A DNA stretch of 64,000 bases. It comes from Mobula birostris (lineage: Eukaryota). Positions 28,601-56,478 of this stretch are shown here, piece by piece (positions within the stretch are counted from its first letter, which is position 1; the number at the start of each line of letters is the position of its first letter). The position numbers and the translations under genes are program-made. Below the pieces are notes generated by a model. It worked only from the letters and a program-made list of their open reading frames with translations, made no database searches and had not been told where the DNA came from. The stretch is from the NCBI RefSeq assembly GCF_030028105.1, contig NC_092376.1, positions 75,626,935 through 75,690,934 of the forward strand, read 5' to 3'.

Positions 28601-30035
28601 CATGAAGGGAAGTGTTGCTTTAGAGGGCTGAAATGGGGGAAGATGAAAAGGATCACGGTGAAATCTCATTGAATATGACAATAATTGTAAAATATGATCT
28701 ATTGAATATAGAACTGCAGCTTTTTTTATTTCCAATAATGGTTAATTTCTGAGTCTTTTAACTTGTTTTTTTGTTGTTTTACAAGTGAACTTGGAGTTTC
28801 TCAACCATATCTGCAATATTCCTGAGCTACTTTTGTCTGTTTGAAAGAGTTTTACTCCACTCATGGGATACCTAGTCGAGAAGAAATGCTGCATTCTAGC
28901 AAATTGTGAAACTGGACAAGAAGATAATAAGTATTCTCACTCTGCTTTGAGCTAAAGGACTGTAATCACCTATGTTCAGGAAACCCACAGCCTGAAAATG
29001 CAGTCTGTCTGTCTGCAATTACCTGGCAATGGTTATGGTTCAGAATCAGAATCAGGTTTAATATCACTGACATATGTCATGAAATTTGTTGATTTGCTGC
29101 AGCCGTTCAATCCAATACCTAATAATAAAAACTATAAATTACACTAAGTATATATGAACAATAAGTGTAAAAAGAGAGGGTAAATACTTGCGTAGTGTTC
29201 ATGGGTTCATTGTCCATTCAGAAATCTGATGGTGGAGGGGAAGAAACTGAGTGTGTGTCTTCGGACTACTGTACCTCCTCCTTGATGGCAGCAATGAGGA
29301 GAGGGCATATTCTGGGTGATGGGGGTCCTTTGAGGCATCGCCCTTTGAAGGTGTCTTGGATGCTGGGGAGGCTAGTACCTATGATGGAGCTGGCAGAGTT
29401 TACAACTTTCTGCAGCTTTTCCCGATCCTGCGCAGTAGCCCTTCCATATTAAATTGTGATGCAATGAGTTGGAATGCTCTGCATGATACACGTGTAAAAA
29501 TTAGCAAGTGTCTTTGGTGACATAGAGATTCTCCTCAAAATCCTAATTAAATATAGCCACTATTGTGACTTCTTTGTAAATACATCAATATGTTGGGCTC
29601 GGGATAGATCCTCAGAGACATTGACACGCAGGAACTTGAAACTGCTCACCATATCCGCTTCTAATCCCTCAATAAGGATTCGTGTATGTTGCCTCAATTT
29701 CCCCTTCCCGAAGTCCACAATCAATTCCTTTGTCTTATTGATCTTGAGTGCAAGGTTATTACTGTGACATCCCTCAACCAGATGGTCTGTCTCACTCCGT
29801 TTGCCTCCTTGTCACAATCTCAAATTCTGCCAACAATGGTTGTGTCCTCAGCAAATTTATAGATGGCATTTGAGTCATGCCTTGCCACACAATTGTGGGT
29901 GTAGAGCGAGTAGTGCAGTAGGATAAGCAGGCATCCTTGAGGTGTCCCAGTGTTAATTGTCAGTGAGGAGGAGACGTTACCTCCACAACACACTGGAGGA
30001 ACTCAGCAGGTCAGGCAGCATCCGTGGAAACGATC

Positions 30036-30071
30036 AGTCGACGTTTCGGGCAGGAAATCTTCATCAGGACT
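30036..30071 (-). ncRNA. Minimal hammerhead ribozyme
   Basis: Minus strand AGTC-CTGATGA-agatttcctgccc-GAAAC-GTC-GACT. Confidence 0.6.
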
Positions 30072-31190
30072 ATAGAGGGAAGGGGCAGAGGCCCTATAAA
30101 GAAGATGGGGGGAGGGTGGGAAGGAGAAGGCTGGAAGGTTCCAGGTGAAAAACCAGTAAGGGGAAGGACAAAGGGGTGGGGGAGGGGCAGCAGGGAGGTG
30201 ATAGGCAGGAAAAGTGAAGAAAGAATACGGGAAAACACAATGGGTAGTAGAAAGAGGCGGAACCATGAGGGAGGTGATAGGCAGCTGGGGGAGGGGACAG
30301 AGTGACATAGGGATAGAGGAAGGGAGGGGGAGGGAGTTACCGGAAGTTGGAGAATTCTATGTTCATACCAAGGGACTGGAGACTACCTAGACGGTATATG
30401 AGGTGTTGCTGCTCCAACCTGAGGTTAGCCTCACCATGGCAGTAGAGGAGGCCATGTATGGACATATCTGAATGGGAGTGGGAAGCAGAGTTGAAGTGGG
30501 TGGCTACTGGGAGATCCTGTCTGTTGTGGCTGACGGAGTGGACTGTCCCTACACCTCCTCTCTTGCCACCATTCAGGGCCCCAAAAAGTCCTTCCAAGTG
30601 AGGCAACACTTCACTTGTGAGTCTGTTGGGGTCAACTATTGCATCCGGTGCTCCTGGTGCAGCCTCCTCTACATTGGTGAATCCCAACACAGATCGGGGG
30701 ACTGCTTTGTCGAGCACCTCCGCTCCGTCTGCCACAACAGACAGGATCTCCCAGTAGCCACCTACTTCAACTCTGCTTCCCACTCCCATTCAGATATGTC
30801 CATACATGGCCTCCTCTACTGCCATGGTGAAGCTAAACTCAGGTTGGAGGAGCAACACCTCATATACCCTCTAGGTAGTCTCCAGCCCTTTGGTACGAAC
30901 ATAGGATTCTCCAACTTCCGGTAATTCCCTCACCCTCCCTTTCTCTATCCCTATGTCACTCTGCCCCCTCCCCCAGATGCCTATCACCTCCCTCATGGTT
31001 CCGCCTCCTTCTACTACCCATTGTGTTTTTCCCCTTTTCCTTCTTCACCTTTCCTGCCTATCACCTCCCTGCTTCCCCTCCCCCACCCCTTTGTCCTTCC
31101 CCTTACTGGTTTTTCACCTGGAACCTTCCAGCCTTCTCCGTCCCACCCTCCCCCCACCTTCTTTATAGGGCCTCTGCCCCTTCCCTCTAC

Positions 31191-31226
31191 AGTCCTGACG
31201 AAGGGTTCCGTCCCGAAATGTGGACT
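31191..31226 (+). ncRNA. Minimal hammerhead ribozyme (mutated)
   Basis: AGTC-CTGACGA-agggttccgtccc-GAAAT-GTG-GACT; cleavage triplet altered. Confidence 0.5.
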
Positions 31227-33619
31227 GATCATTTCCACGGATGCTGCCCGACCTGCTAAGTTCCTCCAGCGTGTTGTGCGTGTTGTTTTGACCCCAGCAT
31301 CTGCAGATTATTTTGTGTTTACGAGATGTTACTTCCGATCTACACAGACTGTGCTCTCCTGGTGAGAAAGTCAAGGATTCAGTTGGAAAGGGAGGTACCA
31401 TCGTTCTCACAATCCTGATTGAGAAGCTGCAGATCCTGGGCCTCTGTACCTCCCTCTGCAATTGGATTCTCGACTTCCTAACCAGAAGACCACAATCTGT
31501 GTGGATTGGTGATAACATATCCTCCTCGCTGACGATCAACTCTGGCGCACCTCAGGGGTGTGTGCTTAGCCCACTGCTCTACTCCCTACATATACATGAC
31601 TGTGTGGGTAGGCATAGCTCAAATACCATCTATAAATTTGCTGACGATACGACAATTGTTGGTAGAATCTCAGGTAGTGCCAAGAGGCGTACTGGAGTGA
31701 GATATGCCACCTAGTGGAGTGGTGCCACAGCAACAACCTGGCACTCAATGTCCGTAAGATGAAAGAGCTGATTGTGGACTTCAGGAAGGGTAAGACGAAG
31801 GAACACATACCAATCCTCTTCGAGGGATCAGAAGTGGAGAGAGTGAGCAGCTTCAAGTTCCTGGGTGTCAAGATGTCTGAGGATCTAACTTGGTCCCAAC
31901 ATATCGATGTAATTATAAAGAAGGCAAGACAGTGGCTACACTTTATTAGGAGTTTGAAGAGATTCTCTATGTCAACAAATACACTCAAAACTTCTATAGT
32001 TGTACCATGGAGAGCATTCTGATAGGCTGCATCACTGTCTGGTATGGAGGGGCTACTGCACCAGACCAATTGATTGGCACAAGTTTCCAATGCCCTACCA
32101 GGTGCACCATCAGGGCCTGATGTCTTGTAACATCTTGAAAGATGTTCTGAAGTCTCTTCCAAGACAGAGCCCACAGGGCCACAGGAATTCGCACAAGTGT
32201 AGTTTTATTCTCCCTTTCCAAGCATACATAAAAGGTGTTGAGCTTGTCTGGGAGTGATGCATCACAGCCATTCATGATGTTAGATATCGCTTTGTAGGAA
32301 GTAATGGCCTGCAAATCCTGCCAGAGTTGACGTATATCTGATTCCATCTCTAATCTCAATCAAAATTGCTTTTCACCCTTAAAATGGCCTTCCATTGGTC
32401 ATACCTGGACTCCTTGTATAGTTCTGGATCAGCAGTCTTGTATGCCACGGAGCTAGCCCTCAGCAGACTTCGAATCTCCTAATTCATCTGTGGCTTTTGG
32501 TTTAGGTATGTGCTTGAAAGTGAGTCCATAGGTTATGGGAGCAGTTCAGTGATGGGGCAAGTGAAGTTGAGTGAAGTTATCCCCTCTGGTTCTGATGGTT
32601 GAGGAGTAATAACTGTTGTGGAATCTCGTGGTGCAGGTCCTGAGGCTCCTGTACCACCTTTCTGATGCAGTAATGAGAAGAGAGCATGGCCTGGATGGTG
32701 GGGTCCTTCATGACGGATGCCGCTTTCCTACAACAGTGCTCCGTGGGGAGGGCTATACCCATGATGGACTGGGCTGTATCCATTACTTTTTGTAGGCTTT
32801 TCCAGTCAAGGCATTGGTATACCAAGCCATGATGCAACCAGTCAATATATTGTCTACTGCTAATCTGTAGAAATTTGTTAAAATTTTAGATGACATGCCA
32901 AATCTTTGCAAACTTCAAAGAAAGTAGAGGAGCAGCTTTGCTTTCTCTGTAATGGCACTTATGTGCTGCAGTTTTTCTGCACCAGTATGAATACTTAGTA
33001 CAGATTTTTGTTAACCATTCAAATAATCTTCAAATGTTGTTGGCTCTTACATAGAGTTGCAATGACTATTTGTTTTGGTAGATGCCAATAGTGGCAAGCT
33101 GAGCCCTGCAGTTCCAGTTTCTAGGACTACAGCTGAGATGCTGCCTGGTTCTGTAGCTTTTGCATTATCCAGTGTTCTCAGCACTTTCTGTGGCATGTTT
33201 ATTCAGGAGGAAACTAAGACAACTCGCCTTCCCGGCACTTCTGGCTAAAGTGAACACTTCAACCATCTCTTTGCCACTCGCCTGCCGGATCCCATCATTG
33301 CTTAGGTTAGGGATGTCAATTGAAACTCTCCCCATTAGCTGTTCTAATGCCCACCATCATTCATGTGGGATGAGATGAGTCTGGATGGCTTTGAAATAAT
33401 CTACTTCTTGTGACTCTGAGCACCAGCTAATAGTTCTGTAAAAGGAATGCAGTCTCTGCTTGTAATTATGTGTTGCAGCTTCTCCAGCTCGGTAAGCAAA
33501 TCATTTTTAGTCTGTCAAGGGCTGTTTTCACTAACCATCCTACTCACTGCAGTTGCTGGATCCTTGTTTGATTATAATGACAGTGAGAGATATGTCAGAC
33601 CATGAAATTACAGGTGGAG

Positions 33620-35494: not shown

Positions 35495-36077
35495 GGTGGT
35501 GGCATCTGTTAGTCTCGCAAGACCATGGATCTGCACCTGGAAAGTTCCAAGGCACAGGCCTGGACAAGGTGGTATGGAAGACTGGCAGTTGCCCATGCAG
35601 CAAGTCTCCCCTCTCCACTACACCGATGTTGTCCAAGGGAAGGGCAAAGGCCGATACAGCTTGGCACCAGTGTCATCGCAGGAGTTGCCAGAACGAGGTT
35701 GAAGGCAATGTCGGACTGCCTGAGGGACTCCAGCTCTGGATTTGTCCTTAGGGTTTACTCCCGAAGCCTTTCCCGTGAGTGGGTATGGCTGCAAGGCAGC
35801 GGAGGTTTGAAATCAGAGCTTTTCCTCTCTTAGACAGACTGGCTTCCCAGGCTGATGAGCTCCATCTACCCAAAGCACTGGTTTTAAGGCGCCAGGACCC
35901 GCCTTCGCCCCTTCTCCTGTCCATAAAAACAGTTCTGCCGGGCTTAGAGGCTAAGCCACACGAGAAGGCCAGGAGTTGGACCTGGTTGGCAGAGGCTATT
36001 TGAGGTGCACGCCGTGAGGAGCACTTTTAGGTAGTGGGAGCTTGTCCCCACTACCACTCCTTGGCTTGACAACCTTG
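35495..36077 (-). mobile_element. RTE-derived non-autonomous short element
   Basis: RTE-type 3' end ccatggtcttgcgagactaacagatgcc plus (cca)n tail; TSD GAACTGGT at 35487-35494 and 36078-36085. Confidence 0.75.
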
Positions 36078-36160
36078 GAACTGGTAAGTTGGCTAAAATA
36101 TGGCACTGACACTCCCAAGAGGTTATCACCACCAATATTGCATCAAGCATATTCTTCACT

Positions 36161-36769
36161 GGTACCTAAGCTTGTCATAGCCAGGGTGGTAGTGGGGATA
36201 AGCTCCCACTACCAATAAAGTGCTCCAACAGGCATGTGTCTCTAACAGCCTCTGACAACCAAGTTCAACTCTTGGCCCTCACGTGTTGCTTAGCTACTAG
36301 GCCCAGTGGAACTGTTTCCACTGACAAAAGAAGGGGCAAAGGTGGACCACTGGCGTCTCAAAATCAGTTGCTTTGGGCAGGTGGGCCTCATCAGCCTTGG
36401 ACGACAACCCGCCTAGGAGAAAGAGAATTCTGATTTTAAACCTCCACTGCCTTGCAGCCATACCCACCCATGGCCAAGGCTTTGTGATTAAACCCCGAGG
36501 AAGAAATATGGCGCTGGGATCCTTACGGCAGTTTGATGTTGTTTATAACTTCACTCTGGCAACCTCGACGACGACACTTGTGCCAAGCTGCATCGGAGCT
36601 TGCCCTTCCCTTAGACTACATCAGTGACGCGGAGAGGGGAACCCACTGCATGGGCAACAGCCGATTCTTCAAATCTTCCCGCCCAGACTAACACCCTGGA
36701 GAGGACACAGTCCACCAGAGGTGCAAACTCATGGTCTCTTGCAATCGACAGCTGCCTATGATGATGATG
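36161..36769 (+). mobile_element. RTE-derived non-autonomous short element, full length
   Basis: 12-bp TSD ATATTCTTCACT (36149-36160, 36770-36781); (tga)n tail; colinear inverted homologue of 35495-36077. Confidence 0.8.
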
Positions 36770-39797: not shown

Positions 39798-40338
39798 CAG
39801 GTCCTGGAAGAATCATATCTCAACTCTGTTTCAGAGGCTCTCTGAAGGCGCAGACAGCCACGAACCAAAGAAAACCATGGAGCACATTCAAAGAAAAACA
39901 TCAACACCCCCCCATGCAAAAAAAACTGAATACACAGTACCTATAAAAAGTATTCACCCCCCCAACCAGAAGTTTTCATGTTTTATTGTTTTACAGCATT
40001 GAATCACAGTGGATTTAATTTGGCTTTTTTGACACTGATCAACAGAAAAAGACTCTTTCATGTCAATATGAAAACAGATCTCTGCAAGGTGATCTAAATT
40101 AATTACAGATACAAAAAACAAAATAATTGATTACAGAAGTATTCACCAACCCCCCCCCCTTAATATGACTCATCAGATCATCACTGGTGCAGCCAGCTGG
40201 ATTTAGAAGTCACATAATTAGCTAAATGGAGATCTGTGTGCAGTCAAGGTATTCCAATTGACTGTAGTGAAAATACATCTGTATCTGGAAGGTCCAACTG
40301 CTGGTGAGTCAGTATCCTGGCAAAAACTACATCATGAA

Positions 40339-40561
40339 TGTTGTGTATGTGGCCTGGTGACACAACAATGCTATTAATAAAAACGCCGGAGATGGGAGCT
40401 AAGGTTCATAGTTCCTTATTGGCAGAAACCAAACTTGGCACACACATACAGATCAATAAGCACCTAATAACACATGATCAATATGTGCCTACTAGTGCAT
40501 GCAATGACGTGTTACTAAAACATAAAGTAGTCCCTTATTATAACGTAGGCTATATGATACA
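40339..40561 (-). repeat. 3' LTR (223 bp)
   Basis: Direct repeat of 43657-43854 with an extra 25-bp internal unit; adjacent to the PPT. Confidence 0.92.
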
Positions 40562-40574
40562 CTCCTCCCCTTTT
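40562..40574 (-). promoter_or_regulatory. Polypurine tract AAAAGGGGAGGAG
   Basis: Abuts the TG of the 3' LTR on the minus strand. Confidence 0.85.
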
Positions 40575-41132
40575 ATTTTAATAATGTATCAACTGTTTTT
40601 GTTATACTGGGGCACTATGCTAAACAAATATGTTTACCCTTAACATACAAACGTCTACCATTTGTTTACTTAGTAACTTAATAATATCAAATTAGAACAA
40701 AGTAACGTAATAATATCAAATTATAACAAGCCTTCTATTTTACTTTTGGTCTAAGACCCATTTATAACTCAAGTCTCGGGGGGGGGCTTCTGTAGATTGT
40801 CTAGCACTGAAGTAAATAGGTCTTCACTCTATTGTCTGGAATAAATTAAACAAACCACAAATTGGCAGGTTCAAGCCATGATGAGTAATCACCTCCATCT
40901 TGCAAAGATGACAAAAGCAAAGTGAAATCTGTGAAAAAGTGAATGTTATCCTTAAAAATATGTGCAATCATCAAAACTGAGATGGCATTGGAAAGTGTCT
41001 TCGAATAGGGTGCTCTTCATTCTGTCAATAAAGTTGTTTGTTTTAATACACATTTCCATATAAAAGTCATGAGAAGTTGACCTCTGAGCATAGGGAGTTA
41101 AGAAGATGTGTGCCTCCAACTTGTTAAGAGTT

Positions 41133-42065
41133 CTAGGCAGCAGATCGCCTCCGTATAATGAAGACTCCTCTGTGCAGCTGTCCTAGATATACATGCATCT
41201 TTGTGCTATCACTTGTCTTCCTTACCCATATCTCATTTGTTCCATCTGAGCTAATTACACAGCCAATCTTTGTATTCTCCTTAGATTCCAAATAGATAGC
41301 CTGACCTTTATGATACCATCTCTTATTGTAATATGACTTTTTATCTTCTATTCGTGCTTCATATCTTTGTGCTGGTGATTCAGCAGGAGTGCTGGGAAGA
41401 TGATCAGGAGAAGACGGAGATGCTGGTCTTTTCGGAGATTTAAGCTTATTGAACGTTCGCAGATCTTCCATTATCTGTTCATCTGTTAACAAGTAAGTTA
41501 ACCGCACAGGTGCAAGTTTTCGTCTTTTGTCTGTAATTGGAACAGGGTCATTAGATCTCTTCCTTAGTTTCCTAGTCATTATTGGCTTTCCCTCCATAGA
41601 ATCTCCTGTGAGTTCCATTGTTAGCCTCTCATTCTCAATCATCTTTTTCTTTTCTTCTAACTTAATATTTTTATCTTCAAATTCCTTCACTGCTGCCTTC
41701 TTCTCTTTAATATAATTCCTTCCACTTGTTCTGTCTCCAGTTGCAGAAAAAGCTCTGCATTTCATATTCTTTCCTTCTATTGTTGATCTAGTTTCTTCAT
41801 CCTTTTCTGATACTCGTGCAAGGTGCCTTCCTGTAACTGCTGTAGCAGTCTTTTGAGAGATGTCAATTTTTCCTGGTATATCTGCTCTTTTACTTCCAGG
41901 TAGTCTTCATCATCCTGCTTATTGGCAGTATCTGTCTCACTTGCAAACTCTGTATCTTCATCCTTCGCTTCCATGCATACTGCATTCGTCCTCATCGTCG
42001 ACACTGTCTAACTCCTCCTTGTCGTTGTAATAGTCGACAATGGGTGAAAGGAGAGCTGCAGACAT
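41133..42065 (-). pseudogene. SUDS3: Intronless retrocopy of SUDS3 (Sin3-HDAC corepressor subunit SDS3)
   Basis: Whole CDS from MSAALLSP..YY..EELDS to [28 protein letters not shown], matching vertebrate SDS3 ([49 protein letters not shown]); frameshifts ~41960 and ~41720, stops ~41777 and ~41762, ~9-codon deletion ~41660. Confidence 0.93.
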
Positions 42066-42084
42066 CTTCCCCACCAAGCTGACC

Positions 42085-43346
42085 TCCTTTGTTGACACAA
42101 TTAGTGCCTTGATGGTGTGCCAATCCATCTGGATTTTCCTGAGCCATCCACATCCCAGCAACAGTGGTCCTCCATTTTTCAGTACATAAAGGTTCAGCTG
42201 CTGTGTTTTGTCTCCGTAGGTCACTGTCACTTTAATTTTACCTTTGGGATGCACTTTCTGTCCTGTGTAAGTCTTTAGCAGCAGCTTAGTTCATTTCAAA
42301 GGTATGTGAGAAAATAATCATTTGTAGTCATGTACAGAGATCACCGTTAAAGCTGAGCCTGTGTCCAACTCCATTTTCAGTCTCACGCCTGCCACTTGTG
42401 GAGTGATCCTTACTACTCTTCAGTCATCTGTCTCTTTCACGCTGTGAAGTTGCAGACAAGACAATTCACTTTTGTCTGAGTCATTTTCATCAGAGCTGTT
42501 TTCTTCCACTTTGTGTACATTGTTGTATTTTCCTTTCTGTGGTTTCTTGTTCCTCTGTATTTTGTCCTTTTTCTGCTGTTTACTAGCTTTGCATACTCTG
42601 CCAGTGTGGCCCTGTTTGTCACAGTTTCTGCATTCTTTGTCTTTAAACCAACAGTCATCGGGGTCATGCGACATGTTCCCACAACGGTAACATTTCTTTC
42701 CTTCATTTATGTTCAGTAACATTTTATTTGTAGCATATTCCAGAGATTTTTGTTGTATCTCTGAAGCACCCCATGCTGCTGTTTTCGTTGATAATGCAAT
42801 GTTCAGCACCTTCTCTAATGTAAGGTCTTTTTCACCCAGGAGCTTCTTCTGTGTGGTTTCACAGTGCATGCCACACACTAACCTGTTCCTCAATGCATCC
42901 AATAGACCAGCTCCAAATTGACAATATTCTGATAATTTGCGCAATTCAGTACAATATTCAGAAATACTGTCATTTTTGCTCTGATTCCTTTTGTGAAATT
43001 TAAATCTTTCAACAATGACCAGTGATCTGGGGTTTAAATGCTTTTGGAGGGTGTCTACTATTTGCTTGAACATTTTGTCAGCTGGCTTTTCAGGGGTTAA
43101 CAAGCTCCGTAGCAGGCCATATGTTTTTGTTCCTATAATACTGAGTAAGACACTGGCTATCTTTGCATCCTTAACACTGTTAGCCTCACAATATAACTCC
43201 ACTTTTTCAATGTAAGTTGCCCAGTCTTCAATGCCACCATCAAATGCTGTAATGGTTCCAAACATCACCATCTTTGTTATGTTAATTAAGTCCCGATCTC
43301 CCCTTATTTTCCTTTTTGACTCATGTGTCCTTTTTGCTAGCACCAC
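42085..43346 (-). pseudogene. gag-protease of the Gypsy element
   Basis: Gag EDWATYIEKVELYCEAN...ERFKFHKRNQ, zinc knuckles CYRCGNMSHDPDDC and CRNCDKQGHTGRVC; the same frame continues through MELDTGSALTVIS (~42374-42336) and GPLLLGCGWLRKIQMDW; only three in-frame TGA stops (42420, ~42318, ~42291). Confidence 0.9.
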
Positions 43347-43642
43347 TAGCGCACTCCATCTAGATGCGTGTGTGTCGCTCCTTTCTATCTCCCTTCGGGG
43401 GCAGGCAGACCCTCAGCCCCTGGGGGTCAGCGCCGGCTGTGGTCTCGCCTGGACGTGCTGAGGCTCCGATTGTGTCGCTTGGTCTTCTGACATTCCCAAC
43501 CCCAGCTGTGCTCCCGCTTCCTTTCAGACTCACGGCTTCGCTCTGCCTCATTCTCCCACTCCTTGGCTCATTCCTTGCACTCTTCTTCTGAGTGCCGTTA
43601 TCAATTAAAACACTGCTTTCCGATACAATGTAGGTTCATTAA

Positions 43643-43653
43643 CCTCGTCGCCA
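43643..43653 (-). promoter_or_regulatory. Primer binding site TGGCGACGAGG (tRNA-Ser GCU 3' end complement)
   Basis: 3 nt from the 5' LTR; complementary to ...CCUCGUCGCCA. Confidence 0.85.
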
Positions 43654-43656
43654 ATT

Positions 43657-43854
43657 TGTTATGTATGTGGCCTGGATACACAGCAATACTATTAGTAAAA
43701 ACACTGGAGACAGGAGCTAAGGTTCATGGTTCTTTACTGGCAGAAACCGAACTCAGCACACACGTACAGATCAATCCGCGCCTAATAGTGCATGCAACGA
43801 CGTGTTACTAAAACATAAAGTAGTCCCTTATTATAAAGTAGGCTATACAGTGCA
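43657..43854 (-). repeat. 5' LTR (198 bp)
   Basis: Direct repeat of 40339-40561, adjacent to the PBS. Confidence 0.92.
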
Positions 43855-44844
43855 ATGAAGACAAAAGAATTCTCCAAGCAACTCCACAAAAAGTTTCATG
43901 GAAAGTGCAAGTCAAGAGATGGATACAAGAAAATTTCATGTCATTGAATGTCCCTTGGAGTACAGTTAAGTCAATCATCAGGAAATGGAAAGAATATCGC
44001 ACAGCTTAAATCTGCCTAGAGCAGGTCGTCTTCAAAAACTGAGTGACTGTGCAAGAAGGTAAGTAGTGAAGGAGGCCACTAAGAGACCTACGACAAATTT
44101 GGAGGAATTACAAGCTTCAGTGGCTGAGATGGGAGAGACTGCGCGTACAACAACTGTTGCCCAGGTTCTTCATCAGTCACAGCTTTATGGGAGAGTGGCA
44201 AAGAGGAAGCCACTGTTGAAAAAAAAACTCACATGAAATCTCAGGTAAAGTTTGACAGAAGGCATGTGGGAGACTCTGAAGTCAGCTGGAAGAAGGTTCT
44301 AAAGTCTGATGAAACCAAAATTAACTTTTTAAAACCAAACACCACACATAATGAAAAACACACCATCCCTACCGTGAAATACGGTGGTGGCCGCATCATG
44401 CGGTAGGGATGCTTCACTGCAGCAGGCCCTGAAAGACGTGTAAAGTTAGAGCGTAAAATGAACGCAGCAAAATATAGGGAAATCCTGGAGCAAAACCCAA
44501 TGCCATCTGAAAGAGAATTGCAACTTGGGAGAAGATTTGTTTTCCAGCAAAACAATGACCCCAAGCATAAAGCCCAAGCTACACAGGAATGGCTGAAAAA
44601 CAAGAAAGATAATGTCCTGGATTGGCCAAGTCAGAGTCCAGACCTCCATCCAATTGAGAATTTGTGGCTGAACTTGAAAAATGCTGTTCACTCTTGATCC
44701 CCATGCAATATGACAGAGCTTAAGCAATTTTGTAAAGAAAACTGAGGAAAGATTGCAGTGTCCAGATGTGCAAAGCTGATAGAGAACAATCCACACAGAC
44801 TCAAGGTTGTAATTGCTGCCAAAGGTGTATCTACTAAATACTGA
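43855..44844 (+). pseudogene. Tc1 transposase pseudogene
   Basis: MKTKE..KQL start; SDETK, FQQNNDPKH (catalytic D mutated to N) and WPSQSPDLHPIENLW with 34-residue spacing; ends KGVSTKY* at 44842-44844; stops, frameshifts and an internal deletion. Confidence 0.9.
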
Positions 44845-46469
44845 CTTGAAGAGGGTGAATGCTTATGCAAACAAATATTTTGTGTTTTATATTTGTAATT
44901 AATTTAGATCACTTTGTAGAGATCTGTTTTCACTTTGACATGAAACAGTCTTTTTCTGTTGATCAGTGTCAAAAACAAACAAATTAAATCCACTGTGATT
45001 CTATGTTGTCAAACAATAAAATATGAAAACTTCCAAGAGGGTGAATACTTTTTATAGGCACTGTAAAACACAAAATTGAAAGAGTCCAGGCATATTCAGT
45101 TCAGCTCAGTGTTCATTATCTGCTGTCCACCCCGGTCCAAAGTTGCCAAAAAAGAAGCCACAAGAAACCAGGAACACATCATAACGTGAACTAAAGTCCA
45201 ATCCACAAACCGCACAGACTAAACCATGCCCAAGACCCATGCTCTGACAATCTTCCTTGGCACTTTAATTGACGAGATCAGCAAGAAGTGGAATCAATCA
45301 TGAGCTCATGCCCCTTCCTCAGGCTTCTTGGCCTTGAAGCCACATGCCTCATGGAACACTCTCAGAGCCTGCAAAGTGCCAGGTCACAGAATCAGCCTGA
45401 CAAAGCACTACCAAAGTGTAGATCACAGGCTCCAGCAGTAGCAGAACCACATTTGAAAGAAAAAGGTGTAAAAGAAGTGAAAGTAGTTTCAAGAACCATC
45501 TGGAGGATGTCACCCTTGACTGTCTTATTTGCTGCCGCCATCTTCTTCAATCTTGGGGTTAGATCTGAAGAAGAGGGATGGAGTGACACTACCTCTCTTT
45601 CCCAACTTCCATGTGAATGAGGAGCCACACATATATCCTTCCTAGGAGTGCTGAGGCTTAGTGCAAATGCCCATTAAGCACAGGAGTCAAGTAGCCAGTA
45701 AGTTTAGGAATGAGTTAATTAGGAAAAGGATCTGTGCTCTAAGTATGTAGAAACATCACCGTAAGCTCAAATTCACTTAGACTTCTAACAAGACCTGTGA
45801 GTTAATCTTGAAACAGTATGAACAGACAAGGGTTAATCACCTAACAAATGTTTACCTCTATTCAGAATTGATCCAATTTCTGAGCACGTAATGCATAAAA
45901 ATGGATTTTAAAATCTGTTAGTTTGCAACAAGTTCCTGAATATGCATCCCATCCTCTGTGACTTGCGAGATTTACAATTGCCATGGTAATAATGCATTAA
46001 TGTGTTTCTGCACTGTATAGAAACTTTAGATACAGCTCTAGTCTGTGGCGTGACTTTGAGTGTTCATTTGCAGATTCTAGGGTAATTTCATTAAATCCGA
46101 TAAATTCCATTCCTATGATACTTTCTAGTGGATTTTATATTTTTTGCATACCTACTTGTCTCTTCTGTCCACTAAATTTACTATTTTTCATTTTTACAAT
46201 TTCACAACTTCATCCTCCAAAACCTTCATAGAAAACACCTCCATAATGGATGGGGCTATTTATTCCCCACTAATTATTAACATTTATTTTCCTATAACCA
46301 TCCATTCTTTTGGTTTTGCCACTGTTCTTACATCCGTCTCATGAATGGATACCAAAAGCAACAGTGATCTCTGTGAAGTTCTCCTTTCTAATGGTATTCA
46401 CCTTTTAATCTCACTTTTTGGCTCTCCTCTCTGGAAGCACCCCTTGCACTTTCATGCTTTTCTATCTTG

Positions 46470-49889: not shown

Positions 49890-52667
49890 AGTGGTTGAAC
49901 TTAGAGCATGGATCAGTACTTGGAGCTATGATGTTGTGGTCATTACAGAGACTTGGATGGCTCAGGGGGAAGAATGGCAACTTTGAGTGCCAGGGTTTAG
50001 ATGTTTCAGAAAGGACGGGGAGGGAGGCAAAAGAGGTGGGAGCGTGGCACTGCTGACTAGAGATAGTGTCACAGCTGCAGAAAAGGAGGAAGTCATGGAG
50101 GGATTGTCTACTGAGTCGCTGTTGGTGGAAGTTAGAAACAGGAAAGGGCCAATAACTGTACTAGGTGTTTTTTATATACTACCCAATAGTAACAGGGACA
50201 TCGAGGAGTAGATAGAGAGACAGATTCTGGAACGGTGCAAAAATAACAGAGTTGTCGTGATGGGAGATTTCAATTTCCCCATTATTGATTGGTATATCCA
50301 TAGAGCAAGGGGTTTAGATGGGGTAGAATTTGTTAGGTGTGTTCCTGACACAATATGTAGATAAGGTTTCAAGAGGAGCAGCTGAACTTGATCTGGTATT
50401 GGGAAATGAACCTGGTCAGGTGTCAGATCTCTCAGTGGGAGAGCATTTTGGAAATAGTGATCACAATTCTGTTTCTTTTACCATAGCATTGGAGAGGATT
50501 AGAAACAGGTAAGTTAGGAAAGTGTTTAATTGGAGTAAGGGGAAATATGAACCTATCAGACAGGAACTTGGAAGCATGAATTGGGAACAGATGTTCTCAG
50601 GGAAATGTACGGCAGAAATGCAGCAAACGTTCCGGGGATATTTGCGTGACATTCTGCACAGGTACGTTCCAATGAGACGGGAAGGATGGTAGGGTACAGG
50701 AACCATGGTGTACAAAGACTGTTGTAAATCTAGTCAAGAAGAAAAGAAGAGCTTATGAAAGGTTCAAAAAACTAGTTAGTGATAGAGATCTAGAAAATTA
50801 TAAGGCTAATAGGAAGGAGCTTAAGAATGAAATTAGGAGAGCCATAACGGGCCATGAGAAGGCCTTAGCAAGCAAGATTAAGAAAAACCCAAGGCATTCT
50901 GCAAGTATGTAAGAAGCAAGAGGATAGGATGTGAGAGAATAGGACCAATCAAGTGTGACAATGGAAAAGTGTGTATGGAACCAGAAGAGGTAGCAGAGGT
51001 ATTCACTATGGAAAAGGACCTTGGCGATTGTAGGGATGACTTACAGTGGACTGAAAAGCTTGAGCATGTAGATATCAAAAAAGAGGATGTGCTGGAGTTT
51101 TTGGAAAACATCAGGTTGGATAAGTCTCTGGACCGGATGAGATATACCCCACGGTACTGTGGTAGATGAGGGAGGAGATTGCTGAGCCTTTGGCAATGAT
51201 CTTTGCATCATCAGTGGCGACAGGAGAGGTTCTGGAGGATTGAAGGGTTGCAGATGTTGTTCCCTTATTCAAGAAAAGGAGTAGAGATAGCTCAGGAAAT
51301 TATAGACCAGTGAATCTTACTTCAGTGGTTGGTAAGTTGATGGAGAAGATCCTGAGAGGCAGGATTTACAAACATTTGGAGAGGCATAATATGATTAGGA
51401 ATAGTCAACATAGCTTTGTCAAAGACACGTCGTGCCTTATGAGCCTGATAGACTTTTTTTGAGGATGTGACTGAACACATTGGTGAAGGTAGAGCAGTAG
51501 ATGTAGTGTATATGGATTTTAACAAGGCATTTGATAAGGTACCCCATGCAAGGCTTATTGAGAAAGTAAGGAGGCATGCGATCCAAGTGGACCTTGCTTT
51601 GTGGATCCAGAACTGGCTTGCCCACAAAAGGCAAAGGGCGGTTGCAGGCGGGTCATATTCTGCATGGAGATCGGTGACCAGTGGTGTGCCTCGGGGATGT
51701 ATTCTGGGTCCCCTACTCTTCGTGCTTTTCATAAATAACCTGGATGTGGAAATGGAGGGATGGGTTAGTAAATTTGCTGATGACACAAAGGTTGGGGGTG
51801 TTGTGGATAGTGTGGAGGGCTGTTGGAGTTTACAGTGGGACATTGATAGGATACAAAACTGGGCTGAGAAGCGGCAGATGGAATTCAACCCAGATAAGTG
51901 TGAGGTAATTCATTTTGGTCCGTCAAATATGATGGCAGGATATAGTATTAATGGTAAGACTCTTGGCAGAGTGGAGGATCAGAGGGATCTCGGAGTCTGA
52001 GTCTATAGGACACTCAAAGTTGCTATGCAGGTTGACTCTGTGGTTAAGAAGGCATATGGTGTATTGGCCTTCATCAACCATGGGATTGAGTTCAAGAGCT
52101 GAGAGGTAATGTTACAGCTATATAGGACCCTGATCAGAACTGTACTCAGTTCTGGTCACCTCACTACATGAAGGAGGTGGAAACTATAGAAAGGGTGCAG
52201 AGGAGATTTAGAAGGATATTGCCTGGATTGGGGAGCATACCTATGGAGAATAGGTTGAGTGAACTTGGCCTTTTCTCTTTGGAGTGATAGTGGATGAGAG
52301 ATGACCTGATGGAGATGTATAGAATGATGAGAGGCATTGATTGTGTGGATAGTCGGAAGCTTTTTCCCAGGGCTGAAATGACTAACACGAGAGGGCACAA
52401 TTTTAAGGTGCTTGGACGTAGGTACAGAGGAGATGTCAGGGGTAAGTTTTTTGTGCAGAGAGTGGTGAGTACGTGGAATGGGCTGCCAGCGACATTGGTG
52501 GAGGCAGATACGATAGGGTCTTGTAAGAGACTCCTGGATATCTACGTGGAGCTCTGAAAAATAGAGGGATATGGGTAACCTTATGTAATTTCTAAAGTAA
52601 GGACATGTTCAGCACAGCATTGTGGGCCAAAGAGCCTGTATTGTGCTGTAGGTTTTCTATGTTTCTA
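49890..52667 (+). mobile_element. CR1 LINE, near-complete decayed ORF2
   Basis: APE motifs (VVAITETW, VMGDFNFP, GNSDHNS) and RT motifs ([32 protein letters not shown]); ttctatgtttcta tail; splits a Penelope-derived short repeat (49820-49885 / 52668-52790). Confidence 0.92.
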
Positions 52668-54789
52668 GGTCAGTCAGCATTGGTAAAGGAGAAATTATTG
52701 ATAGGTCATTGACATGAAAAGGTAATTTTTTTTTCTCTCTACAGCTAATGTCTGACCTGCTGAGGATCTCCAAAGTTTTCTTATTTATCTGAAATTTATG
52801 TCTGTCAAGCCAACTGTTCTTACTGAACTTTTGCTTAGTTTGGAAGTATAGTAATGACAGACAGATTGGCTAATTGTTTTCCAAAGAAACTGTGGAAATT
52901 CTTCATTTAGATCTAATCCAAATGCACATTTGTTTACAACTGCATCTGCAGACATTCTCGTGATTATGTTTACACCTCTGTTCCAATGCTATCCCAAAGT
53001 AAAAAGAAAATACTGACAGTGGAAATAAGGCAAAATTACAAAAATGTTGGTCAAATCAATAAAACTAATATATAGAGTCCAATTGCACAGATACTGCTAT
53101 TGATGCCTCCCTTTAATTTTGAGTACCTGAAGAATTTACCTGAGTAGATAATTGCAGAGGAGCACTTTTTCATTCATTTTATCTGGCCCTTGCACACAAT
53201 TTTAAAATTCAACATGATTACCAAAAGCACTTTGATGTGCATTATTTTAAATAAAACATTTCTCTTGAGATAGTTGTTGCTGAAAACTCTGGCAATTATT
53301 GCTCACAACTGTTTCACATAAGAAGCTTCAGGAGTCTGAATGGTAGGAATGAAGGAACAGGGTCCCATGATTCTCCCTAAGCAACAGTGAAAACTCATTG
53401 CATCTCCAAGTGAGATCTCTTTAGAACTAAGGGGAAGTGGTAGTTGTTTCATGCATTTCATTATGGTGGATGTTGGTGCTTATGTTTCTGCTATTACAGA
53501 AACCTTAGCAATTTGATTCACTGAAGGTGCAGTGGTAGTTCAGGAGATCTCAGTTTCAAAAGGGGTCAAGGAGGTGGAACTTCTACTCAGAAGTATTCCA
53601 GTTCTGCTGTATTTTGCCTGCTCTAACATTCATTAATGTCATGGCTGACATTTCACCTCAGTGACTATTTCTTGTACTAACTTTGCTTCATTTAATATTT
53701 AAAGATCTTCTAATCCCTATCATGAATATAGTCGGCAACTTATCCTCTACTACCACCTTGGAGAAAGAATTCAGCCTCCTCTGGTTAAAGAAATTTCTCT
53801 GCATCTTTGCCCTCATTATAAGACTTTGTTCCAGACATCCCAGCCAGGGCAATCATAGGCCTTGCATCTATGCTGTTAAGCTCCATAAGATCTACATTAT
53901 GTTTCATTGAGATCAGCCCTCGTTCTTCTCAGACTATAAATCTACTCTGCTTAATTTCAATTTACACGACCCCATCTCAGGAATCAATCTGGTAAATCTT
54001 TGTTTGCACTTCCTCTGTTCATTTAACAGGGAGGCCCAATCTATGTGCAATATTCTAGATGCAGCCTCCCTGGGGCCTTTTTTTAATTATAGAAAGACGT
54101 CTCACTTTAATGGGCTGAACAGTTAAGCTATGGGACAGAAAGGTTCAAAATATAGAGTAACAAACCAGCACCGAATCTCATCAGCAAAGGACTAGGAAAA
54201 GGTGCCCATATTTGTGAACTGATATTTTTTTTTGAAATCTCTTCTTGAAATAGTTGCACGAGACAAGTTTAAATGCTGAGGGTTTGGAAACACACTACAT
54301 TTTTGGTGTGTGTTGTACATATTCTTTTCCTTCACGTTGCTTATTTTCTGATATTCAAATAAAATTTTAATTAGTGGAGGTTTTTTTTCAGTTATTTGCC
54401 TAACACAATGTTATGCTGTTAATTCTGTTTACACAAGAAGTTATCCCAGATAGTTAAGGGCATTCTTCAGCCTAGATTTATTGACTCTTTCATGTTGTAC
54501 ATAAAGGGAGTTCATGGTGTTCCACTCAAAAATGTTGAGGTACTGGATTATTGGATTTGGCATTTTAAATCAAACTCTAGGTCTGGCATTTAATGAAGAG
54601 AATTTCATCTGAACATTCAGTCTAACAAGACAAAAGCCCTCTTCTTTTGGACTGTTTTTATGATTTAATTACACCAAGTGCACAGATGAAATTTTTTTTT
54701 ATGGTTAGGCATGTTGAGTATTGCCATGATTTTGTTGGTTCAACATGTAATTAGTGCTTACTATAAAATGGAGAAAAAAATTGATACGA

Positions 54790-55335
54790 ACATGAGAAAA
54801 TCTGCAGATGCTGGAAATCCAAGCAACACACACAAAATGTTGGAGGAACTCAGCAAATCAGACATCATCTATGGAAACGAGTAAGCAGTCGACATTTTGG
54901 GCCAAGACCCTTCATCAGGACTGGAGAAACAGATGAGAAGTCAGAGCAAGAAGATGGGGGAGGGGTAGAAGAAATACAAGGTGGTAGGTGATAGGTGAAA
55001 CTGGGAGGGGGAGGGGTGAGGAGCTGGGAAATTGGTGAAAGAAATAAAGGGCTGGAGGAGAGGAAATCCAGGGTAGAAGACCATGGAAGAAAGGGAAGGG
55101 AAGGACCACCAGAGGGAGGTGATGGGCAGGTGAGGAGATAAGGTGAGAGAGGGTAATTGGAATGGGGGAGTGGTGAAAGGGGGCAATTACCGGAAATTTG
55201 AGAAATTGATGTTCCCCCCCATTCATGTTTCCCTCTCTCACCTGGTGAAGGCTCTTGGCACAAAACATCAACTGTTTACTCTTTTCCATAGACACTGCCT
55301 GACCCATTGAGTTCTCCAGCATTTTGTTTGTGTTC
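54790..55335 (-). mobile_element. Penelope-like terminal repeat with inverted end
   Basis: Same terminal repeat as 29985-30360; degenerate hammerhead 54887-54922. Confidence 0.7.
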
Positions 55336-55347
55336 CCAAGAAATTGA

Positions 55348-56478
55348 GAAACATTGAAACACAGAAAACCTACAGCACAATACAGGTCCTTAGGCCCACA
55401 AAGCTGTGCTGGACATGTACTTACCTTAGAAATTACCTAGGGTTACCCATAGCCCTCTATTTTTCTAAGCTCCATGTACCTATCCAAAAGTCTCTTAAAA
55501 GTCCCTATCGTATCCGCCTCCACCATCGTTGCCAGCAGCCCATTCCACGCACTCACCACTCTCTGCGTAAAAAGCTTACCCCTGATATCTCCTCTGTACC
55601 TACTTCCAAGCATCTTAAAACTGTGCCCTCTCGTGCTAGCCATTTCAGCCCTGGGAAAAAGCCTCTGGCTATCAACACGATCAATGCCTCTCATCATCTT
55701 ATACACTTCTATCAGGTCACCTCTCATCCTCTGTCGCTCCAAGGAGAAAAGGCCAAGTTCACTCAAACTATTCTCAGAAGGCATGCTCCCCAATCCAGGC
55801 AACATCCTTGTAAATCTCCTCTGCACCCTTTCTATGGTTTCCACATCCTTCCTCTAGTGAGGCAACCAGAACTGAGCACAGTACTCCAAGTGGGGTCTGA
55901 CCAGGGTCCTATATAGCTGCAACATTACCTCTCAGCTCCTAAACTCAATCCCATGCTTGATGAAGGCCAATGCACCGTATGCTTTCTTAACTACAGAGTC
56001 AACCTGCGCAGAAGCTTTGAGGATCCTTTGGACTCAAACCCCAAGATCCCTCTGATCCTCCACACTGCCAAGAGTCTTATCATTAATACTATATTCTGCC
56101 ATCATATTTGACCTACCAAAATGAACTACCCCACACTTACCTGGATTGTATTCCACCTGACGCTTCTCAGCCCAGTTTTGCATCCTATCAATGTCCTGCT
56201 GTAAACTCTGACAGCCCTTTACACTATCCACGACACCCCCAACCTTTGTGTCACCAGCAAATTTACTAACTCATCTCTCCATTTCCTCATCCAGGTCATT
56301 TATAAAAATCACAAAGAGTAGGGGTCCCAGAACAGATCCCTGAGGCACACCACTGGTCACCGACCTCCATGCAGAATATGACCCACCTACAACCACTCTT
56401 TGACTTCTGTGGGCAAGCCGGTTCTGGATCCATAAAGAAACATCCCCTTGGATCCTATGCCTCCGTACTTACTCAATA
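55348..56478 (-). mobile_element. CR1 LINE 3' fragment
   Basis: IERVQRRFTRMLPGL...RMRGDLIEVYKMMRG; same family as 49890-52667. Confidence 0.9.

Follow-up and report, generated by a model that had tools for sequence, protein, structure and literature searches.

The element, its cargo and the host gene

The window analysed here, a stretch of 64,000 nucleotides from Mobula birostris (NCBI RefSeq assembly GCF_030028105.1, contig NC_092376.1, positions 75,626,935 to 75,690,934), contains a long terminal repeat (LTR) retrotransposon in which spliced SUDS3, a gene of the host, stands where pol would be expected. On the minus strand, positions 40339-43854 comprised, in order, the 5' LTR, a site resembling a primer-binding site (PBS), gag, protease, SUDS3 without introns and with a portion of its 3' untranslated region (UTR), the element tail, a polypurine tract (PPT) and the 3' LTR. 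This architecture had been proposed in an earlier, sequence-only reading of the stretch, and the order of the parts, the target site duplication (TSD), the PBS-like site, the PPT, gag and protease were all present where that reading had placed them.

The TSD, ATGAA, was found at 43855-43859 on the 5' side of the element and at 40334-40338 on the 3' side (plus strand); all parts of the element between them lie on the minus strand. The 5' LTR (43657-43854; 198 nt, TG...CA) and the 3' LTR (40339-40561; 223 nt) were identical at 173 of 198 aligned positions, a Kimura two-parameter (K2P) distance of 0.14. The PBS-like site, TGGCGACGAGG, at 43643-43653, 3 nt inside the LTR, and the PPT both adjoin the LTRs, as for a Ty3/gypsy element; the former is a putative tRNA-Ser match. 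The gag region (42440-43271), with two zinc knuckles, was open from its ATG up to a stop at 42422 and had 55-63% identity with single open reading frame (ORF) gag-pol proteins. The aspartic protease region (42085-42439) continued in the gag frame, with its DTG motif at 42357-42365 and, in this copy, stops at 42422, 42320 and 42293. A Pfam search of the window gag or protease alone gave no match, while the sister copy L007 matched Retrotrans_gag, PNMA and zf-CCHC, all below the cut-off. Reverse transcriptase (RT), RNase H and the integrase core were not found in the window copy. The absence of these activities had been claimed before and was confirmed, but about 30 nt of the end of the integrase frame persisted 3' of the cargo, so that pol sequence lies on both sides and about 2.8 kb has been deleted.

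The cargo began with 12 nt of host SUDS3 5' UTR, in frame (42066-42077), followed by the spliced SUDS3 coding sequence (CDS; 41133-42065), 94% identical to the host gene, and the first 339 nt of the host 3' UTR (40794-41132), where the presumed UTR had been put at about 340 nt. The segment stopped within the UTR, without poly(A), and the element 3' region (40562-40793), made up of the last integrase-frame codons, the element 3' UTR and the PPT, followed with 91% identity to the pol-bearing sibling L048. The CDS had been described as complete and intronless; all 12 exons were present without introns, but 24 nt were missing and the reading frame carried two frameshifts and two stops, private to this copy. 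Together with the three in-frame stops in gag-protease, these lesions mean that the window copy is dead.

In the genome (G000, 4.01 Gb), host SUDS3 was located on contig C36, minus strand, as an intact gene of 12 exons over about 61 kb encoding 319 amino acids. The locus was found by its splice-acceptor pattern (one match genome-wide), and searches with exon 6 and with exon 1 each had it as their top hit other than self. The protein was that of the Mobula birostris RefSeq entry, except for an 8-residue insert in the RefSeq model. All 11 introns, one of them AT-AC, were missing from the element copies; the AT-AC intron, of the minor-spliceosome type, follows host exon 7 (L044, 5859 and 2773). 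At the three host loci tested, neither gag or protease nor LTR or tail sequence was found.

The cargo thus consisted of all 12 exons less 24 nt (8 codons). The deletion, near 41664 in the window, was present in 36 of 36 copies that cover the site and at 149 of 149 non-host places scored; it sits within exon 6 between 6-nt TGAGTT direct repeats and falls in the coiled coil (residues 80-163) that mediates SUDS3 dimerisation according to the available text of PMC8800102. The eight residues were kept in four of four SUDS3 orthologues. Alternative splicing was discarded as the source of the gap, which lies inside an exon between direct repeats, and a candidate undeleted intermediate at C20:76313478 was rejected because that locus holds a different 15-nt insert.

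Junctions, pol-bearing siblings and family size

Alignment of the copies to host SUDS3 and to a pol-bearing sibling mapped the switch points. The junctions had been estimated at about 42085 and 40795; both estimates were near, but the exact sites were 42078-42084 and 40794/40793. The 5' site is a 7-nt microhomology, GGGCAGC (one letter off in the window copy), common to the pol-bearing siblings and the host SUDS3 5' UTR. The element reads ...AAAGGA GGGCAGC and then enters the RT linker, the host UTR reads ...GGGGC GGGCAGC TCGGCGGGGAAG ATG, and the copies fuse element and host at GGGCAGC. The join lies about six codons beyond the conserved end of the protease and puts SUDS3 in frame with gag-protease, a feature that the sequence-only reading had not noted. 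Of 38 copies, 35 have the same 5' spacing and keep the frame, the exceptions being two without the SUDS3 start and one with a 2-nt deletion, and in L007 a natural frame of 589 amino acids spans gag, protease and SUDS3. One may guess that the element protease could release SUDS3. The internal ORF was not interrupted but replaced by intron-free cargo: RT, RNase H and almost the whole of integrase, a pol segment of about 2.8 kb, gave way to about 1.3 kb of spliced SUDS3.

The 3' junction occurred in two forms. The long form, as in the window, retained 339 nt of UTR, and the short form about 112 nt, joined at a 7-nt GACAGAC match to about 17 nt more element sequence; because of this extra sequence, the short form cannot have come from the long one by simple deletion. 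The trees, which were stars, gave no support for separate clades of the two forms, with 8 and 11 changes of label. Runs X19 and X11 yielded contigs that span the 5' junction with at least 31 letters on each side, and runs X11, X15 and X18 contigs with the short 3' junction; the four runs represent four organisms in four studies, and X15, X18 and X19 are RNA by guess only. In X19 the summed contig depth over window positions 41800-41980, in the 5' third of SUDS3, was far above that of the host-like contig, depth being no measure of expression.

The closest named relatives were single-ORF Ty3/gypsy-type gag-pol proteins labelled 'K02A2.6-like'. The relative P0265 had by Pfam the order protease-RT-RNase H-integrase, and the pol-bearing siblings in the genome were colinear with it. 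The element presumably belongs to a Mag-like clade. The siblings were at 85-92% identity; the protease end was shared by six of seven examined at 86-92%, and by the seventh (L057) at 69%. L048 has the LTR, gag, protease and tail in common with the window copy, and the tree of gag-protease places it within the SUDS3 copies. In the siblings a 230-nt tail and then the LTR follow on the integrase frame, leaving no room for env. All pol-bearing copies listed had stops or breaks in most matched stretches. A search with the RT start gave 331 first-look candidates and one with the tail 696, so that the SUDS3-bearing and pol-bearing forms appear similar in number.

These data agree with the earlier proposal that the gene was captured by template switching: the host gene has introns, pol-bearing siblings exist, the 5' join falls on a microhomology and the cargo has neither poly(A) nor TSD at its edges, as that proposal had also stated. 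During a Ty3/gypsy burst in a mobulid ancestor, RT would have left the RNA of the element for a co-packaged SUDS3 mRNA and then returned, swapping pol for SUDS3 while the LTRs, PBS, PPT and gag-protease were retained; the captured product would then have dropped 24 nt between the two direct repeats. Another possible route is that a long interspersed nuclear element (LINE) put a SUDS3 processed pseudogene into an element whose pol was deleted later. LINE-driven retrocopies are common in vertebrates (bioRxiv 10.64898/2026.06.26.734816, in the text available), pol sequence lies on both sides of the cargo and one 3' junction is without microhomology. The cargo, however, ends inside a 3' UTR that continues further in the host, its 5' end is joined on a 7-nt match of host UTR and element, and a second, exactly abutting 2.8-kb deletion would be required. 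The signs by which the sequence-only reading would have recognised such an insertion, poly(A) with a TSD around the cargo or undeleted pol on both sides, were both missing, and we regard the LINE route as very improbable.

The genome searches scored 39 to 150 candidates each, and the counts are therefore floors or estimates. The whole 3.5-kb element matched many loci at 87-91% identity (best 39 of 2877 candidates scored), and 37 of 37 distinct non-host SUDS3 loci fetched had element sequence beside SUDS3. Searches with exon 6 and exon 1 scored the best 150 of 406 and of 364 candidates; once the host gene was removed, each list had 149 places, 55 of them common to both, giving at least 243 distinct SUDS3-bearing loci on 31 contigs. 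The LTR context was checked at about 50 of them. Capture-recapture gave an estimate of 404 loci, which is rough since both lists are ranked by similarity. In the 20 copies with both outer ends (of 30 loci), the TSDs matched at 5/5 positions in 14, 4/5 in three and 3/5 in three, taking the best register within 2 nt, and all were different; the LTR-LTR K2P distance in these copies had a median of 0.110 and a range of 0.064-0.155. A count of SUDS3-like loci with differing TSDs had been suggested as a check in the sequence-only reading. Segmental duplication was rejected on the differing TSDs and flanks and the spread over 31 contigs, and in the one supported pair in the tree, L010 and L013, the TSDs also differ. 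In L036 (2758-2878) the 5' LTR was directly joined to SUDS3 at about CDS nt 23, without leader, gag or protease.

Because the copies share one junction and the 8-codon coiled-coil deletion, the family is the product of one capture followed by a burst, presumably in trans. Copying in trans had been suggested earlier, and it accords with the absence of pol from the element, with hundreds of dispersed copies, distinct TSDs and the pol-bearing siblings, which would have supplied RT and integrase and copied the SUDS3 element to about 400 sites. Non-CpG divergence was 3.4% per copy, which would suggest tens of millions of years at slow chondrichthyan rates.

The window copy had inserted into an older Tc1/mariner copy on the plus strand (40026-44975; inverted arms 40026-40147 and 44854-44975, DDE_3 at 44407-44694), and no empty site in another Tc1 copy was present among the fetched loci. 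Elsewhere in the window, long inverted pairs of interspersed repeats, 75-94% complementary, were observed at 29456-31990, 35607-36640 and 51556-56478; they are probably LINE or short interspersed nuclear element copies in opposite orientation.

Further cargo in the same family

At 15 further loci bearing the tail, the tail was adjoined by SUDS3 in 11, by pol in one and by other cargo in three. In two of the latter the cargo was RNF213 in antisense (E 2e-26 against solved RNF213), and splicing had joined it over a host intron that has AG/GT flanks. The RNF213 piece enters after SUDS3 nt 676 or 698 and exits to SUDS3, the tail or a third cargo at 10-, 7- and 8-nt microhomologies. Searches gave 152-157 candidates for this cargo; when four host exons, two second pieces and one distant hit were taken from 122 matches, at least 115 loci were left, and 70 of the 115 adjoin a listed SUDS3 hit, in line with the expectation if every one does. 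It was present in 40 of 149 and 41 of 149 SUDS3 copies in the two lists, about a quarter. The variants retain SUDS3 from residue 1 to about 225-232 and with it the Sin3-interaction region (195-219). In L028 (3941-4915), L029 (3972-4917) and L079 (1-640) the antisense spliced RNF213 includes the RING-coding part, and the host has at least two neighbouring RNF213 paralogues, at G000:C28:51.80 Mb and 52.08 Mb (L087-L090). The antisense copies are a possible source of antisense small RNAs.

The third cargo was found in an element at G000:C7:102148450-102152200 (L078, 1-1283; L062; L086) with the order LTR-leader-cargo-tail-LTR and the TSD GAGGA. Its cargo of about 1.1 kb consists of 11 exon pieces of C7:35913785-35945307 in circularly permuted order; the permuted joint falls on the splice acceptor of an exon, and the last exon is 18 nt short. 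Such an order would be the expected outcome if the template was a circular RNA or if there was a double switch. The cargo is called TTC3-like after one Pfam hit below the cut-off (E 0.0017); the ESM Atlas returned no usable name for it (scores under 0.9). The TTC3-like piece occurs in two elements, in one of which (L081, G000:C5:16912800-16914300) SUDS3, antisense RNF213 and the TTC3-like piece are joined at microhomologies. Since defective and helper RNAs would have shared particles, further switches could have given rise to the short-UTR, RNF213-antisense and TTC3-like variants.

Decay, possible function and significance

None of the 37 sampled copies had an intact SUDS3 part. The ratio of observed to expected private changes was 1.12 for synonymous, 0.95 for non-synonymous and 0.92 for stop changes, and the SUDS3 copies thus decay neutrally after insertion. 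The trees (for SUDS3, excluding four partial copies) were star-shaped, with end branches of about 0.045 and a host branch of 0.014. Sites that differ from the host in at least 80% of copies comprised 9 synonymous (4 host CpG, 5 non-CpG), 2 non-synonymous (P187T and S263G) and 10 UTR changes. A single neutral lineage of the age of the copies predicts 7.1 non-CpG synonymous and 11 UTR changes; the shared differences do not exceed this expectation, which places the capture shortly before the burst. The shared silent changes can be explained by host drift, and 2 of 23 shared sites seen among the matches listed, both in the UTR, point to change in the host lineage.

Several SDS3-like genes of Mobula in RefSeq look like chance-open copies of this family. 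The 8-residue gap was present in six of six annotated SDS3-like proteins examined from Mobula birostris and M. hypostoma (coverage of the site being unchecked in P0243). The protein-coding models P0018, P0029, P0003, P0121, P0124 and P0243, from the two species, were as diverged as the broken copies, and P0124 includes the protease-SUDS3 junction. That the host retains some copies as working SUDS3 retrogenes might be read from the open 311-residue proteins P0018 and P0029 and from the junction-bearing contigs in X19. The annotated proteins, however, differ from the host protein by 9-11%, as do the broken copies (median 10.3%, n=33), where true orthologues differ by 0.3-4%, and with no sampled copy intact such retention is highly unlikely.

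A role for the silencing function of SUDS3, implied in the sequence-only reading, was not supported: all 37 copies are broken and decay neutrally, and variants that interrupt or truncate SUDS3 spread too. We are fairly confident that SUDS3 was captured by template switching and copied in trans, most likely as a passenger that would have kept the gag frame open as far as its normal stop. Several points weigh against this explanation. The long-form 3' junction, that of the window itself, lacks clear microhomology, and the explanation does not account for the antisense entry of the spliced RNF213 piece. SUDS3 variants present in three or more copies were slightly richer in synonymous transitions than singletons (19/44 versus 89/283, p=0.087). 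The amplified variants seen retain both the coiled coil of SUDS3 and its Sin3-interaction region, and the one cargo lacking SUDS3 turned up a single time. Finally, the passenger status is a default, not a result, the source lineage being too short for a powered test.

With the same origin, the cargo itself may have been selected. A Gag-protease-SUDS3 polyprotein would then have been made and processed, and a core subunit of Sin3-HDAC would have been captured as a protease-releasable domain whose coiled-coil-shortened form, eight residues shorter, acted as a decoy of host silencing or as a shield of the element, aiding the burst of about 400 insertions. The whole CDS is in frame a few codons past the protease end, the fixed deletion is in frame within the dimerisation coiled coil, the RNF213 variants keep residues 195-219 and the candidate counts are no lower than those of the helper. 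The weak synonymous excess in shared SUDS3 variants resembles that among transitions in gag-protease (p=0.064); only the transition-only test was used for this comparison, and pooled tests of transitions and transversions (p<0.01) were set aside as confounded by transition enrichment at recurrent sites. Against this, chance gives an in-frame join one third of the time, and the source lineage fixed the deletion and two non-synonymous changes at residues conserved in other chondrichthyans and had no synonymous excess over host drift. Non-autonomous LTR elements, moreover, often outnumber their helpers (PMC5131818, in the text available). Selection of the cargo is accordingly considered rather unlikely. 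A selected fusion would amount to a decoy of a host corepressor borne by a transposon, and to a host-derived anti-silencing factor on a defective element.

Acutely transforming retroviruses carry in-frame gag-onc fusions and depend on helpers. The SUDS3 element resembles them in both respects but has no env, is a germline retrotransposon and has a fusion protein that is predicted from sequence. LTR-mediated retroposition in metazoans has been published (Tan et al. 2016, PMC5131818). In the portion of that paper available, as here, a spliced mRNA replaces an internal ORF without poly(A), multi-gene chimeras and secondary non-autonomous retroposition occur, and microsimilarity marks the switch points (median 6 bp; here the 5' junction and the short 3' junction each have 7 nt). 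The cases described there are single- or few-copy and mostly partial, whereas here the full CDS occupies about 400 loci, is comparable to its helper in number and has sub-variants with further cargo. Maize Bs1, according to the same text, likewise has several host genes in one LTR element and copies that share switch points, but is a plant element with 1 to 5 copies. The mouse circRFWD2 pseudogenes associated with MMERVK10C (PMC4897178, available text) are similar in that one captured RNA occurs at many LTR-associated loci without poly(A) and in their non-colinear exons, seen here in the TTC3-like cargo; they comprise 42 copies of an endogenous retrovirus (ERV) with the mechanism left open, while the present gypsy family has roughly tenfold more copies and switch points mapped against helper and host. 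Crocodilian ERVs that captured KIT ligand or nectin3 (PMC4299795, available text) are also vertebrate LTR elements with host mRNA in several copies and species, but with 9 and 6 copies, cargo in the env position and reported purifying selection, where here pol is replaced.

No description of a SUDS3-carrying LTR family was found in the published literature, Repbase and Dfam lying outside the search. In a 2026 preprint (10.64898/2026.06.26.734816), SUDS3 is one of the five genes with most retrocopies in cartilaginous fishes; its available text discusses the repertoires in terms of non-LTR activity, expression in the germline and selective filtering, offers no LTR explanation and does not name Mobula. 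A Greenland shark preprint reports, in the part available, retrogenes near LINEs or LTRs and no LTR family of the SUDS3 type. The high SUDS3 retrocopy count of the former would then reflect one capture copied as a transposon, if it is linked to this family.

The mechanism is known; the scale, the in-frame capture of a full CDS and the serial recombination are notable. For retrocopy counts, a check for LTRs suggests itself for MIPOL1, SDF2L1, SLU7, ZNF276, PIWIL2 and DND1 on the same preprint's list. With helper, host gene and recombinant intermediates in one genome, and about tenfold above the largest precedent compared (42 copies), the family is a large and well-preserved record of repeated RNA capture in what would have been retrotransposon particles shared with helper RNA.

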